From Escherichia coli (GTDB taxonomy: Bacteria > Pseudomonadota > Gammaproteobacteria > Enterobacterales > Enterobacteriaceae): a DNA stretch of 64,000 nucleotides. The notes under the pieces are model-generated. The model saw only the letters and a list, made by a program, of their open reading frames with translations, was not told the DNA's origin and searched no databases. Positions 1-8,855 of the stretch are shown piece after piece (within the stretch, counting starts at the first letter, position 1; each line of letters starts with the position of its first letter). Position numbers and translations under genes: made by a program. The stretch lies in the NCBI RefSeq assembly GCF_965641715.1, contig NZ_OZ282453.1. One strand, 5' to 3'.

Positions 1-42
1 AAGTGATTGGGCAGAGCCGAAACGTTTACAATCCGATAGGAG

Positions 43-1677
43 TTGGTTTTGTCGCTACATGATAAATTATTAATGCATAACTTCGCATTAGCCAATAAAA
101 AAAGCCCTGACTTCATATCTGAACTTCCTCAAATTGAACCTAAACCATACAGCAATGGACATAAAATTAAATGGATAAACCACACACTTACTAGCACTGA
201 AGTTACTCCGCCTGATAACCTGATTAAAATATGCATATTGATTGAGTCAGGGGAAATTGCTATAACATCAGTAAGTGATATTGCCAATTTACTTGGAGTT
301 CCTGCTGGCCAATTACTTTATATACTATATCGTAAAAAAGATAATTATCGTACTTTTGAAATAGAAAAGAAGAATGGTAAAAAAAGAGTCATTAATGCTC
401 CTTGTGGCGGTCTATCGATACTCCAAACGAGACTAAAGCCCGTTCTTGAATATTTCTACAGGCCAAAGAAATCTGCTCATGGTTTTATAAAAGGAAAGAG
501 CATCATTACTAATGCTGGGATGCATATTAAAAAAAAATTTGTCGTAAACATTGACCTAGAAAACTATTTCGAATCAATAAGTTTTGCTAGGGTTTATGGA
601 ATATTTAAAAGTAAACCTTTTAATTTTTCTCATCCAGCAGCTACTGTTTTAGCTCAGTTATGTACTCACAATGGAAAATTACCTCAAGGTGCGTGTACAT
701 CGCCAATATTAGCAAATATTGCATCAGCTTCTCTAGACAAACAGCTCACCCAATTTGCAGGAAGAAAAAAAATATCTTATTCTAGGTATGCTGACGACAT
801 AACTTTTTCTTTCAATCAGAGAAATATTGATATAATCAAAAAAAACGACGACGGAAGTTATAGTCTTAGTGAAACTATAGACAATATTATTTCAAAAAAT
901 GGCTTTAAAATAAATTATGATAAATTTAGAGTTCAAACCAGAAATACAAGACAAAGTGTTACTGGCTTAGTGGTTAATGATAAAGTTAACATTAACAGAA
1001 GATATATAAGAATTACACGTTCAATGATTCATAGATGGACAGATGATAAGCTAAAGTATGCACTTCTCTTTGCTACAGAAAAAGGATATCAGGCAAAGGA
1101 TAATAACCACGCAATTCAAATTTTCCGAAATCATATTTATGGAAGACTTAGCTTTATAAAAATGGTTAGAGGGAAAGACTATCCAGGATATTTAAAACTG
1201 ATGTCATACATGAGTCATAACGATCCATTAAAAACCCAAGAAGGATTGCGAGCAATGAAAGAAACAGAAAACTTTGATGTTTTTATATGCCATGCAAGCG
1301 AAGACAAAAAAGACATTGCAATTCCAATATATGACGAGTTAACTAAACTTAAAATTTCAGCCTTCATAGATCATGTTGAGATAAAATGGGGCGACTCCTT
1401 AATTGAGAAAATAAATGCAGCACTAGTTAAATCAAAATATGTCATCGCTATTTTATCTGCTAATTCAGTCAATAAGGAATGGCCTCAAAAAGAATTAAGA
1501 GCAGTTTTAGCCAGCGAAATATCGAGTGGCGACGTAAAACTTTTGACCCTATTAAAAAAAGAAGACAAGGAGGTCGTAAACCTATCATTACCTTTACTTA
1601 GTGATAAGTTTTATATGGTCTATGATAATAATCCTGAAGTAGTCGCCAACAATATTAAATCACTCTTACAACGATAA
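43..1677 (+). CDS. Reverse transcriptase fused to C-terminal TIR domain (retron/defence-type RT); start ambiguous (TTG 43, TTG 49 after AGGAG, or ATG 73)
   Basis: RT motifs in translation: FVVNIDLENYF, LPQGACTSPILANI, SRYADDITFS (YADD); C-terminal FDVFICHASEDKKDIAIPIYDEL...ILSANSVNKEWPQKEL resembles TIR; in-frame stop at 37-39 limits the 5' extension. Confidence 0.85.
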   Translation: MVLSLHDKLLMHNFALANKKSPDFISELPQIEPKPYSNGHKIKWINHTLTSTEVTPPDNLIKICILIESGEIAITSVSDIANLLGVPAGQLLYILYRKKDNYRTFEIEKKNGKKRVINAPCGGLSILQTRLKPVLEYFYRPKKSAHGFIKGKSIITNAGMHIKKKFVVNIDLENYFESISFARVYGIFKSKPFNFSHPAATVLAQLCTHNGKLPQGACTSPILANIASASLDKQLTQFAGRKKISYSRYADDITFSFNQRNIDIIKKNDDGSYSLSETIDNIISKNGFKINYDKFRVQTRNTRQSVTGLVVNDKVNINRRYIRITRSMIHRWTDDKLKYALLFATEKGYQAKDNNHAIQIFRNHIYGRLSFIKMVRGKDYPGYLKLMSYMSHNDPLKTQEGLRAMKETENFDVFICHASEDKKDIAIPIYDELTKLKISAFIDHVEIKWGDSLIEKINAALVKSKYVIAILSANSVNKEWPQKELRAVLASEISSGDVKLLTLLKKEDKEVVNLSLPLLSDKFYMVYDNNPEVVANNIKSLLQR

Positions 1678-2121
1678 TTCTCTCACAAAAGCAAATGTGC
1701 AGATTGATGCGTATTAAGTATTAACCTGCACATACAAAAAATTAATAAAATAATATATTTTTCATAACCTGCAGGTAACAATAATATGTGTCGTAACGAA
1801 TAGTTGGATAACCTCTATACCCTATTAACCAACCAATTAACTCTATGTAATCTCGCAGCCTCAAAACCCGACTATTGTTCTCTTAACAGTCAGTTCACGT
1901 TCCATTTCGGCCTGAGCCCCATAACATGGAAGAAAAAACGCCCCCAGTCAGTCCAGCTTTCAGACAATCAGTGTGTCACCTGCCGATAATATTCTGAGTA
2001 GTTTTTTCAGCCCAGGCCTTTCGGACTTTGTACCACTGATTTTATCTTCAAAATCAGCGCGCATTCTTCGTAGTCCAGCAAACTCTTGTATATGACGTTA
2101 TTATGGCTACAGCAGTAACGA

Positions 2122-2208
2122 TTATTCCATAACAGGTACTGTAGGCCACTCAATATCCGGTGCTACTGATGTATCAACACGGTTCAGCAACACCCGATAC
2201 TTTTTCCA
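2122..2208 (-). pseudogene. tfa: Tail fibre assembly protein (tfa) C-terminal remnant, about 28 codons
   Basis: Minus-strand translation [28 protein letters not shown] matches the recalled lambda Tfa C-terminus; frame is closed by a stop immediately upstream. Confidence 0.6.
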
Positions 2209-2326
2209 GGTTGTTACCAGACTCACATTCGTTCATTAATATGTCCTGTGATTTGCGTGCGGTGAGGTAGCCTTTTCCCAACCTCACCATCATCCGGCAA
2301 TTTGTATTTATCACAAACGGCCTGTA

Positions 2327-4729
2327 TCAGTTGTCTGTTGCACCAACCATACCCGCAAATTTGAGCCATTGTCCTGATGGACTTCTGTTACCGCGGTAGT
2401 GATAAACAAGGATTGCATTTGTTACTCCACCATAGTCAGCTTTATGTGATGTGGTTAAGCGAATTGTATAATCACCATCGGGCAGGTTAAAAACTTCAAT
2501 TACAGTCCCTGCTAATTCAACCGCTCCAAACCCCGTTATATTGTTGATGCTGCCCGCATTGAATCCCATCATATCGCCAAAACCAATCCAGTACTTTTTG
2601 CTGAACGCACCATTTGACCTCAGGTGGTTAATAAATGTGGACATACTCATGCCCATTTCGCCGCCAGTTATGGCTGATGTACGTACCGAAATACTTGGCA
2701 GAGCACTACTCTTCACATAAGAGCTCAGAAGATTTATGACTTCTGTTTTCGTATAAGCATTAACGTTAGCCGCAGTCAACGTTATATCCGCAGTGCCATC
2801 AAACTTCACACCAGCAATTTCCCTTGCAGTCTGCAATTTCGTGGCACTGGCTGCGTTACCCGTTGTATCCTGATTGCCTGCCGCATTCACCCCCGGGATC
2901 AAATCTTTTACTGTATAAATCTGCGCCCAGTCCGACTCAAACCCATACTCATCCCGTGAGGAACGATAAAACAGCCCACCATTTTTATAATTGGCCCTGA
3001 TTTGCAACGTCCGGCAACTTCCACCCCCTGTATAGAAGTTTGCAACAATATAGCTGCTGCCTGTCCGGGTGACATTGTATGCACCAGATTTGGCATTCCA
3101 CGGAACGCCTCCCTCTGACTCTGCGTGCACACCGGACGATCCAAGAGCAAAAGCAGAGACATCTGCAGCGGACAGCCTGATGTCTGATTTCAATGCCTTA
3201 CCATTCACCTTACGACCAGATGGAACCCGGTCATTTGCATTATCATTCACCGCTTTCACCGCCATTGGTGTTGCCGCCAGCGATTCACTGTCACTGTCCG
3301 TGGCACTGCTGAGCTGTACCACCCCCTTTCTCGTCGTGCTCGCATCCTCTAGCGCCACGGCAGATGCAATATCCTCTGCCCGTTTTGCTGCTGTCTCGGC
3401 ACGCGTTGCTGCAGATTCCGACGTACTTTTGCTCTGAGCTGCCGCTGTCGCACTACCAGCTGCCTCTGTCGCCTTCGTGGATGCCGTCGTGGCACTGACC
3501 TTCGCCTCTGACGCCTGTCTTACCGCCTCATCTTTTGAAGCAGACGCCGATGATGCTGATGACGCCGCCGAACTGGCGGACGATGCGGCTGCCGTTTCTG
3601 AGGCTCCTGCGCGGGTTTCCGACGCTTTCGCATTCGTCTCAGATGTCTTCGCTGCGGAAGCAGAACTCGCAGCTGCAGTGGCCTGTTCAGTGGCTTCGCC
3701 AGCCTTCGTTGTGGCTGTTGAAGCGGACGATGCAGCGCTTTCTGCCGATTTTCCGGCGGCAGCGGCACTGGCTACAGCCTCCCCTGCCTTCACTGATGCC
3801 TCACGGGCCGATGATGCAGCCGCGGTTTCTGAGCCTGCCGCAGCTGAGGCACTCTGTCCCGCTGCCGTTTCAGAAGACCTGGCGTTCGTCTCGGACGTTT
3901 TTGCCGCTTTCGCGGAATTGCCTGCCGCTGTTGCCGAGGAAGCTGCGCTACTGGCGCTCGAGGATGCGTTCGTTTCTGATGATTTTGCCGCCTCTTTTGA
4001 AGCCGCCGCATCCCGGGCTGAGGTGGCAGCTTCTGACGCTTTCGTAGTCGCGGTGGATGCAGAAGTGGCTGCTGATTGTTGTGACGCTGCCGCATTCGTT
4101 TCTGACGTTTTCGCGGCACTGGCACTGGTAGCTGCCGCGCTTTTTGAGGACTCTGCAGCGGCAGCACTTTTTGATGCTTCAGTGGCCTTTGTTGATGCCG
4201 TTCCTGCGCTGGAAGTCGCTGACTGAGCCGACGACGCGGCCTGTCCGGCTGACGTGCTGGCTGCGCGTGCTGAGCCTGCAGCATCAGTCGCATGGGTTGC
4301 CGCCTCACGGGCTGATGTGCTGGCATCACTGGCTGACTTCTTCGCGGCTGCCGTGTTCTGTGCCACCACGGACGCGTTACGCGCCACCTCTTCCACCATC
4401 AGCTCAAAACGGCGCAGTGCCTCCGGACGGGCATCATCCTCCGTCATGGCACCGAGAAAATCATTCAGCGTACCGGGTCGGGAATCTTCATACACTGTGA
4501 TGGTCCCGGCATGTGACGGCGGGAATCCTTCCACCAACAGAATAACGCTGTACTGACCGTACTCAACGTCCATGCTGTAACGCCCGGCTTCATCCGGATT
4601 TTCTGAGGCCAGCGTGTTCACCACCACCGTGGTACTGTTACGTTTTGCTTTCAGCTGGATTGTGCAGTTCTGTACCGGTTTTCCTGTGCCGTCTTTCAGT
4701 ACACCTGAAATCTTTACTGCCATATTCAC
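2327..4729 (-). CDS. stf: Side tail fibre protein Stf
   Basis: N-terminus MAVKISGVLKDGTGKPVQNCTIQLKA... lambda Stf-like; long Ala/Ser/Thr-rich repetitive shaft; follows lom and J. Confidence 0.9.
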   Translation of the reverse strand: MNMAVKISGVLKDGTGKPVQNCTIQLKAKRNSTTVVVNTLASENPDEAGRYSMDVEYGQYSVILLVEGFPPSHAGTITVYEDSRPGTLNDFLGAMTEDDARPEALRRFELMVEEVARNASVVAQNTAAAKKSASDASTSAREAATHATDAAGSARAASTSAGQAASSAQSATSSAGTASTKATEASKSAAAAESSKSAAATSASAAKTSETNAAASQQSAATSASTATTKASEAATSARDAAASKEAAKSSETNASSSASSAASSATAAGNSAKAAKTSETNARSSETAAGQSASAAAGSETAAASSAREASVKAGEAVASAAAAGKSAESAASSASTATTKAGEATEQATAAASSASAAKTSETNAKASETRAGASETAAASSASSAASSASSASASKDEAVRQASEAKVSATTASTKATEAAGSATAAAQSKSTSESAATRAETAAKRAEDIASAVALEDASTTRKGVVQLSSATDSDSESLAATPMAVKAVNDNANDRVPSGRKVNGKALKSDIRLSAADVSAFALGSSGVHAESEGGVPWNAKSGAYNVTRTGSSYIVANFYTGGGSCRTLQIRANYKNGGLFYRSSRDEYGFESDWAQIYTVKDLIPGVNAAGNQDTTGNAASATKLQTAREIAGVKFDGTADITLTAANVNAYTKTEVINLLSSYVKSSALPSISVRTSAITGGEMGMSMSTFINHLRSNGAFSKKYWIGFGDMMGFNAGSINNITGFGAVELAGTVIEVFNLPDGDYTIRLTTSHKADYGGVTNAILVYHYRGNRSPSGQWLKFAGMVGATDN

Positions 4730-4787: not shown

Positions 4788-5387
4788 TCAGAATTTATAA
4801 CCAACACCCACGATGAACCCGTCAGTGCGCCAGTCACCACTGCCGGAGCCTTCATAAGCGACATCAATGGCCACGGATTCGGTCGGGTTAAACTGCACGC
4901 CAGCTCCCCACGCCAGAGACGTGTTGCTGTGGCGACCGTCATCACTTCCGGTCAGCACATCGTGCTTTTTCCCCTTGTTGTCAGTTACGCGGAGATAATC
5001 CCCGGAGAAAGTCGACACACGGCTGTAAGCCACACCCGCCATCGCATACGCGCTGAACCATTCATTCACGCGCACAGACGGCCCCGCCATTACGCTGAAC
5101 CAGCGGTTACGAACGGAATCTTCATGCCAGCGGGTATCGCTGTAACGGGTAATCTGGCGATTCTTGTCTCCTGCATAGCTGAACGACGTCACCATCCCCA
5201 GTGTGTCCGTAAACTCATAACGGTATTTCACGTTAATCCCGTTCAGATCATCACTGCCGGGAACGTTCGTCCGGGCATGAAGATACCCCGCGCTCAGCGT
5301 GGACTGATGTTCAGACGCCCATGCAGGCGCACCGGATACGGCCAGACAAATGGCTGCGGACAAAATGGCGGCATAAAGTTTACGCAT
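4788..5387 (-). CDS. lom: Outer membrane protein Lom (Ail/Lom family)
   Basis: Signal peptide [24 protein letters not shown], beta-barrel-like sequence ending GYKF; position after J. Confidence 0.9.

Positions 5388-5453: not shown

Positions 5454-8855
<3,402 letters not shown>

Follow-up and report, generated by a model that had tools for sequence, protein, structure and literature searches.

A truncated tail fibre assembly gene marks an exchange of the side tail fibre tip in a lambdoid prophage of Escherichia coli

Results

A remnant of tfa lies between stf and an RT-TIR gene

The window, by which we mean the whole stretch of 64,000 nt that was analyzed (contig NZ_OZ282453.1 of the Escherichia coli assembly GCF_965641715.1), contains the right end of a lambdoid prophage. 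Here, the genes J, lom and stf are followed by a remnant of the tail fibre assembly gene tfa, a remnant of a serine recombinase gene and a gene encoding a retron-type anti-phage reverse transcriptase, RT-TIR (Table 1). The N-terminal part of Stf is conserved among lambdoid prophages, and its residues 3-136 match the Pfam family phage_tail_N with an E value of 1e-71. PGAP annotates stf over its first ~500 codons only, as a truncated pseudogene, despite the open frame. The 300-codon tip (2327-3224) was left unannotated by PGAP in every genome examined (L001, L002, L003), and this class of tip is effectively invisible in RefSeq annotation.

Table 1. Coordinates of the features discussed, as positions in the window
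Feature	Position	Strand	Remarks
RT-TIR (retron-type TIR anti-phage reverse transcriptase)	43-1677	plus	NCBIfam NF042941; Pfam RVT_1 and TIR_2
Frameshifted Pin/Cin-type serine recombinase pseudogene, 231 nt	1861-2091	minus	PGAP annotation of the near-identical EC416
tfa stub (pseudogene remnant)	2122-2208	minus	the final 28 codons, with the stop, of a lambda-type tfa
118-bp spacer	2209-2326	minus	the donor fibre gene's own 3' flank; no origin in tfa
Exchanged tip cassette	2211-3232	minus	stf codons 500-800 and the donor's own 3' flank
In-frame TGA upstream of the stub, closing the tfa frame	2233-2235	minus	direct sequence reading
Hairpin GGTGAGGT-(12 nt)-ACCTCACC within the spacer	2261-2288	minus	kept in Cyrano and L014; forms in the RNA fold
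stf, side tail fibre gene	2327-4729	minus	uninterrupted 800-codon ORF; stop at 2329-2327
Domain B, C-terminal 142 aa of Stf, globular fibre end	2330-2755	minus	homologous to Mu S' 8ju3
Conserved fibre motif GVVQLSSATDSDSESLAATPMAVKAV(NDNAN), left-hand homology arm	3233-3325	minus	Stf residues 469-499
lom	5387-4788	minus	right end of the lambdoid prophage
J	8852-5454	minus	right end of the lambdoid prophage

A first-pass annotation of this DNA had read the minus-strand translation downstream of stf as the conserved C-terminus of a lambda-type Tfa, shut off by a stop just upstream and separated from the stf stop codon by 118 bp of unrelated sequence. All of this was borne out. The list of open reading frames has a minus-strand ORF of 34 aa at 2122-2226, which contains the 28-residue Tfa-like peptide (2208-2122), and the peptide matches Pfam PF02413 (Caudo_TAP) with an E value of 6.1e-13 and a score of 49.5 bits (cut-off 22.1). 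At the nucleotide level, the stub is 90.4% identical to the 3' end of lambda tfa over 94 nt (blastn, E 8e-26), and the homology may start at 2210. In tblastn, lambda Tfa residues 162-194 matched the stub with an E value of 3.5e-14. The TGA at 2235-2233 closes the frame nine codons upstream of the W codon (2208) with which the stub begins, and the 118 bp that follow stf bear no relation to tfa.

Compared with lambda Tfa (orf-194) and PF02413, the stub is identical at 26 of its 28 residues and at 90% of its nucleotides, but it has no start codon, has a stop in frame upstream and covers only positions 103-130 of the 131 in the model. A full-length tfa would begin with a start codon directly after stf and encode ~190 aa, N-terminal domain included (Tfa has 194 aa in the intact relatives described below); 28 homologous codons are what is left here. 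On re-inspection, the 64 kb contained no intact tfa frame, and the stub was the sole match in the window in tblastn searches with six Tfa/U proteins, its similarity to Tfa being far above chance. In strain EC416, PGAP labels the stub ‘tail fiber assembly protein; incomplete; missing N-terminus’. The stub is a non-functional tfa pseudogene scar of an ordinary kind, and our literature search found no paper that describes tfa stubs as such.

The recombinase pseudogene, which matches P7 cin at 83%, is a second and older scar, common to the intact-tfa relatives. It starts ~30 nt past the tfa stop in every relative, whether or not tfa is intact. We considered whether the locus could be what remains of an invertible segment, and rejected this: the invertase survives only as the frameshifted remnant, no inverted repeats flank stf and there are no inverted fibre ORFs. 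The RT-TIR protein scores 671 bits against NCBIfam NF042941 (Retron_TIR_antiphage; cut-off 600). Its gene is intact in the window and is split in EC416 by a 1-nt deletion at window position 537. Any msr/msd RNA would be located beyond the window's left edge.

The fibre ends in a domain that is internal in the Mu fibre

AF2 models the last 142 aa of Stf, here called domain B, as a compact alpha/beta domain (pLDDT 80). In a fold search, the only PDB match at E <= 0.001 was the Mu fibre 8ju3 (TMq 0.73, E 9e-8); by sequence, domain B corresponds to residues 218-309 of this fibre. Window Stf also matches 8ju3 by phmmer (E 5.8e-31, two domains) and is 40% identical to P1 Sv' and P7 Sv. In Mu, domain B is internal, and a knob and a further terminal domain then follow in Mu and P7. 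In the alignment, P7 S runs ~190 aa past domain B, where window Stf stops. The order of the domains was also seen to differ, being knob, fibre repeat and domain B in the window (2330-3106), and domain B, knob and terminal domain in P7 S (L007) and 8ju3. For the wider family we preferred an exhaustive homologue search to a word-based one, which gave only 11 proteins. This search placed domain B at the C-terminus in the six closest full-length families, and internally in most of the remoter matches.

The first-pass annotation had also asked whether the Stf C-terminus resembles fibres that carry an intramolecular chaperone. It does not: neither an S74 nor an intramolecular-chaperone domain was present in Stf (Pfam returned phage_tail_N only, and NCBIfam gave no match). 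With no S74 domain, and with a fold search that returned only 8ju3 and no intramolecular-chaperone structure, a tip of this type was ruled out.

Comparison with intact stf-tfa loci resolves both breakpoints

The prfC prophages of strains 13P477T and EC13 carry an stf of 1100 aa, an intact tfa of 585 nt, the recombinase stub, RT-TIR, dinI and prfC, in this order. Aligned with them, the window is homologous from 5500 down to 3233-3236 at 92-94% identity, and then again from 2210 to 1 at 98.9%. Homology to the intact-tfa relatives stops at 3233, 3236 and 3243, and across 3232-2211 none was found to the intact-tfa relatives L008 and L009. Because the homology breaks at 3233 and resumes at 2210, we define the foreign piece as 3232-2211, which comprises the stf tip and the spacer. 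Its counterpart in the relatives is the distal half of stf together with tfa up to its last 28-29 codons. The alignment thus resolves the two breakpoints and supports the earlier proposal of a modular exchange at the fibre tip, with the stub as its mark.

The left boundary of the cassette is just distal to the conserved motif GVVQLSSATDSDSESLAATPMAVKAV, which forms Stf residues 469-494, and the exchanged tip makes up the distal 301 codons of stf. At the right junction, at most 2-3 nt (A.CC) are shared with the intact tfa; because nothing but this A.CC is in common, the right join would be an illegitimate one.

The tip has relatives in phage-plasmids in which no tfa follows

The last 257 aa of Stf are 82% identical by tblastn (80% at the nucleotide level) to the fibre protein CYRAN_21 of Cyrano (pLF82), an SSU5-like phage-plasmid of E. 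coli LF82. About 200 SSU5-like phage-plasmids carry a tip with 83% nucleotide identity, and the alignments end at the stop codon. We did not find a direct donor, the best phage and plasmid matches to the tip being 80-83% identical in nucleotides, with the spacer aligning in part only. In the phage collection, megablast matched the tfa stub alone, and not the tip.

The relationship to Cyrano extends beyond the stop codon. Some 56 nt of the spacer (2288-2233) can be aligned to the sequence that follows the homologous Cyrano gene on its 3' side, with a local score of 40 compared with a mean of 16 (sd 2.2, maximum 25) in 300 shuffles. The hairpin directly after stf is also kept downstream of the fibre gene in Cyrano, where one base pair has undergone a compensatory change, and it reads TGTGAG...CTCACA in Cyrano and L014. 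The spacer as a whole folds with a z-score of only -2.0. The spacer was also considered as an intrinsic terminator, and this was rejected, as no site scored and the hairpin has no U tract. In summary, CYRAN_21 resembles the window's stf in its tip, in part of its flank, in the hairpin and in having no tfa downstream, but it is a 1341-aa fibre of a phage-plasmid with lysis genes next to it, and at its level of identity it is not the direct donor.

An intact tfa was never found after the tip in the five contexts examined. The tip is followed by a holin gene in Cyrano and L014, and in strain A10, which has the same stf (95.5%), a ygiW-like gene comes directly after it and there is no tfa stub. 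In the 108-kb genome of Cyrano, tblastn with six Tfa/U proteins revealed no Tfa/U homologue (best E 0.45), and Cyrano produces virions (PMC9928086). The tip is also without the terminal portion found in U-chaperoned fibres. Judging from these gene contexts, it is plausible that the tip folds without Tfa.

At L013 (6964-7470), we observed a variant of the tip with 62% identity, belonging to a 1302-aa fibre and followed, after 55 nt, by an ORF of 168 aa. The ORF matches only phrog_9559, a family with no assigned function, and has no Pfam match. It may encode an unrecognised chaperone or be a gene unconnected with the fibre, and we set it aside, counting it neither for nor against a chaperone.

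Alternatively, the fibre could need Tfa supplied in trans from a second prophage, or could be non-functional, leaving the prophage without side fibres, and the stub would then record a loss of function. A source of Tfa in trans is conceivable in most hosts, as tfa-like DNA is present in 5219 of the 5426 genomes. Domain B has homologues within the Mu S', P1 Sv' and P7 Sv fibres, whose chaperones are of the U type, and the side fibres of lambda are dispensable (PMC3945230). Against this, the terminal domain that comes after domain B in Mu and P7 is the very part that window Stf is missing. The ORF has, moreover, been kept open across four genomic contexts, with 3% divergence that is mostly scattered, and the tip is homologous to one carried by some 200 phage-plasmids, among which Cyrano makes its virions with neither Tfa nor U. 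We take this alternative seriously and regard it as unlikely.

The tip, spacer and stub have moved between two prophage families of swine E. coli

The 151 bp that run over the end of stf, the spacer and the start of the stub occur in 6 of 5426 complete E. coli genomes (EC416, PEC41, CV839-06, ETEC1731, ETEC1747 and RM10740), and all six come from swine. The strains are ETEC and porcine isolates, one of them from a feral pig. This tip could be directed at a surface structure that many porcine E. coli share. Five of the six genomes have a copy of the junction in another family of lambdoid prophages, adjoining potB and without RT-TIR; EC416 carries both the prfC and the potB prophage. Between 1770 and 4400, the prfC copy of EC416 has no differences from the window.

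The potB copy of ETEC1731 shows how far the shared tract extends. Just 2 differences separate it from the window in 3175-2167, compared with roughly 4-20 differences per 100 bp to the left of 3175. From 2166 rightwards, inside the stub, differences are dense and the potB prophage continues with its own tfa allele, ending ...EWPTSPAE*. The right crossover with this copy is therefore placed between 2199 and 2167, in the first ~42 bp of the stub. Since the near-identical tract ends inside the stub, we infer that the stub acted as the right-hand homology arm. In crosses between lambda and Rac, one third of the recombinants had their right crossover in the tfa region, which is 95% identical (PMC3945230).

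A second allele of the spacer and stub was observed in the potB prophage of EC416 (L012). Its tip-coding sequence and its junction are identical to those of the window, and 12 differences fall in the spacer and the start of the stub, where the first stub codon is changed from TGG to TGC (W to C). That a second allele has the same junction implies that the junction predates the recent transfers and that the stub is not under constraint at the protein level.

These alleles also bear on two other explanations of the stub. One is decay in place, in which the tip had a tfa of its own and an internal deletion removed the 5' five-sixths of it. Deletions are common in prophages, and the neighbouring recombinase gene is itself a deletion remnant. 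However, the spacer shows kinship with the sequence after the Cyrano fibre gene, where there is no tfa, and not with tfa itself; the genes found after the tip elsewhere are the holin gene or the ygiW-like gene and never tfa; and at its 3' end the stub is, in prfC and potB prophages alike, the tfa allele native to that family. Decay in place is thus very unlikely.

The other explanation is that the stub has been retained for a function, either as a 33-aa peptide translated from the GTG at 2226 or as a cis-acting site for the neighbouring genes, for instance a promoter or a terminator. We consider it highly improbable. The recurrence of tfa 3' stubs after several types of tip, and the presence of a 34-codon ORF with a GTG start, would agree with it, but no Shine-Dalgarno-like sequence lies ahead of this GTG, and the stub, whose conserved W is changed to C in the second allele, diverges at the pace of the non-coding spacer. 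Furthermore, stub lengths vary between events, no terminator-like site was seen and the promoter-like matches are weak only, and A10 has the same tip with no stub at all.

The RT-TIR cargo assorts independently of the tip

The recombinase stub and RT-TIR (window 1-2121) are present at ~99% identity in 82 of the 5426 complete genomes, which come from humans, dogs, birds, pigs and water. An intact tfa lies directly upstream in 35 of the 82, and 25 have an S74-peptidase tip with a tfa stub of 45 codons, while the window's own junction is found in only two (EC416 and PEC41). From 2208 to 1, the window is matched at 99.4% identity by SC516, a genome with an unrelated tip. The Esc14 prophage, located at ssrA, carries RnlAB in place of RT-TIR, behind an intact tfa and the recombinase stub, and its homology to the window runs out at 1942, within the recombinase remnant. 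Because the homology stops there, the seam of the cargo is the recombinase stub and not the tfa stub. RT-TIR was in place before the tip was exchanged, and the two assort independently. Although RT-TIR and the junction adjoin in the window, we give almost no credence to the first-pass suggestion that the tip exchange was the event that brought in the downstream cargo, given RT-TIR's presence next to intact tfa genes and S74 tips, the potB prophages that carry the junction without it, and the position of the cargo boundary at ~1942.

Stubs of tfa recur after other tips

The S74 tip with its 45-codon stub is also found in other prophages that have no RT-TIR, and the homology then ends in the stub or at its end. 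In DFS.1 (L010), a prfC prophage, we observed two tfa stubs in series, at 5013-5132 (120 nt) and 6005-6181 (177 nt). The first comes after stf and two small ORFs (phrog_1361 and phrog_1443), and the second after an inserted methyltransferase gene. This double stub suggests serial insertions of cassettes at the tfa seam. The truncation points known to us lie 28, ~40, 45 and ~59 codons from the end of tfa, which points to independent events.

Discussion

Our model suggests that a foreign tip replaced the distal part of stf and most of tfa, and that the tip, spacer and stub then moved as a cassette; we consider this history probable, and hold it with some confidence. In the ancestral lambdoid prophage, stf, tfa and the recombinase stub would have followed one another in this order. 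The incoming tip would have taken the place of the distal half of stf and of tfa up to its last 28 codons. Its presumed source is a gene that has no tfa behind it and whose kin are found in SSU5-like phage-plasmids, and the tip would have brought along ~118 bp of the donor's 3' flank. The left join would have been made through the conserved fibre motif (...SSATDSDSESLAATPMAVKAV), and the right join by an illegitimate event at tfa codon -28, with microhomology of at most 2-3 nt. Whether this happened as a replacement in one step or as a replacement followed by a deletion makes no difference to the present sequences, which are compatible with both.

In the second part of this model, the cassette would have been transferred between prfC and potB lambdoid prophages in swine E. 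coli by ordinary homologous recombination, either RecA-dependent or of the phage Red type. The conserved stf motif would have served as the left arm, and 40-87 bp of the tfa stub as the right arm. A right arm of ~40 bp is short for a RecA-dependent exchange, which speaks against this step.

The horizontal transfer of tail-fibre gene segments is reportedly the subject of classical work by Haggard-Ljungquist, Sandmeier and Hendrix. The type of event described here is well known, and automatic annotation had already flagged the stub. What is new are the exact boundaries of the cassette, the affinity of its tip to phage-plasmids without tfa, the stub's use as a homology arm and the confinement to swine strains.

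One close known system is that of De Paepe et al. (2014, PMC3945230), in which lambda and defective prophages became mosaic through homologous exchange at stf-tfa. There, as here, one crossover lies in stf and the other in tfa. The cassette of the window differs in that its arm consists of only 40-87 bp of tfa, and in that its tip comes from a lineage that has no tfa.

Mu S' (8ju3), P1 Sv' and P7 Sv share with the window the homologous domain B and knob (26-41% identity) and a Pin/Cin-type recombinase, here a nearby remnant. These fibres have U/U' chaperones and are encoded in Gin/Cin-invertible segments; in the window the domain order is permuted, the terminal domain is missing, and there is neither a U gene nor an invertible segment with its inverted repeats.

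The S74 side tail fibres, of which SC516 WP_100881966 is an example, are also encoded in prfC prophages, where their genes are followed by a tfa stub, the recombinase stub and RT-TIR, and there too tfa has been displaced. Window Stf differs from them in having no S74 or intramolecular-chaperone match and in the truncation point, which is at 28 instead of 45 codons.

Taken together with the S74 fibres, the locus raises a more general idea, which we put forward tentatively and with some doubt. The 3' stubs of tfa could be a standard right-hand ‘docking arm’ for portable tips that need no chaperone, comprising the S74 tips and those terminated by domain B, the latter a previously unrecognised class of Tfa-independent tips that would have stayed hidden for want of a PGAP annotation. 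If this reading were true, tips that have shed their chaperone would be exchanged at the same seam as the tips that depend on one.

Beyond the points made here, the locus is an example of routine phage mosaicism. Our results flag a fibre tip that automatic annotation handles as a truncated pseudogene. For phage engineering, the arrangement of conserved motif, tip and short tfa 3' arm suggests a naturally validated splice design for chaperone-free swaps of lambda-type tips. For the prophages themselves, our results define to the base pair the limits of a receptor-binding cassette of roughly 1 kb that has travelled between the prfC and potB families of swine E. coli, and they separate the RT-TIR defence cargo from the host-range module, each of which has its own history and its own seam, the recombinase stub for the cargo and the tfa stub for the tip.
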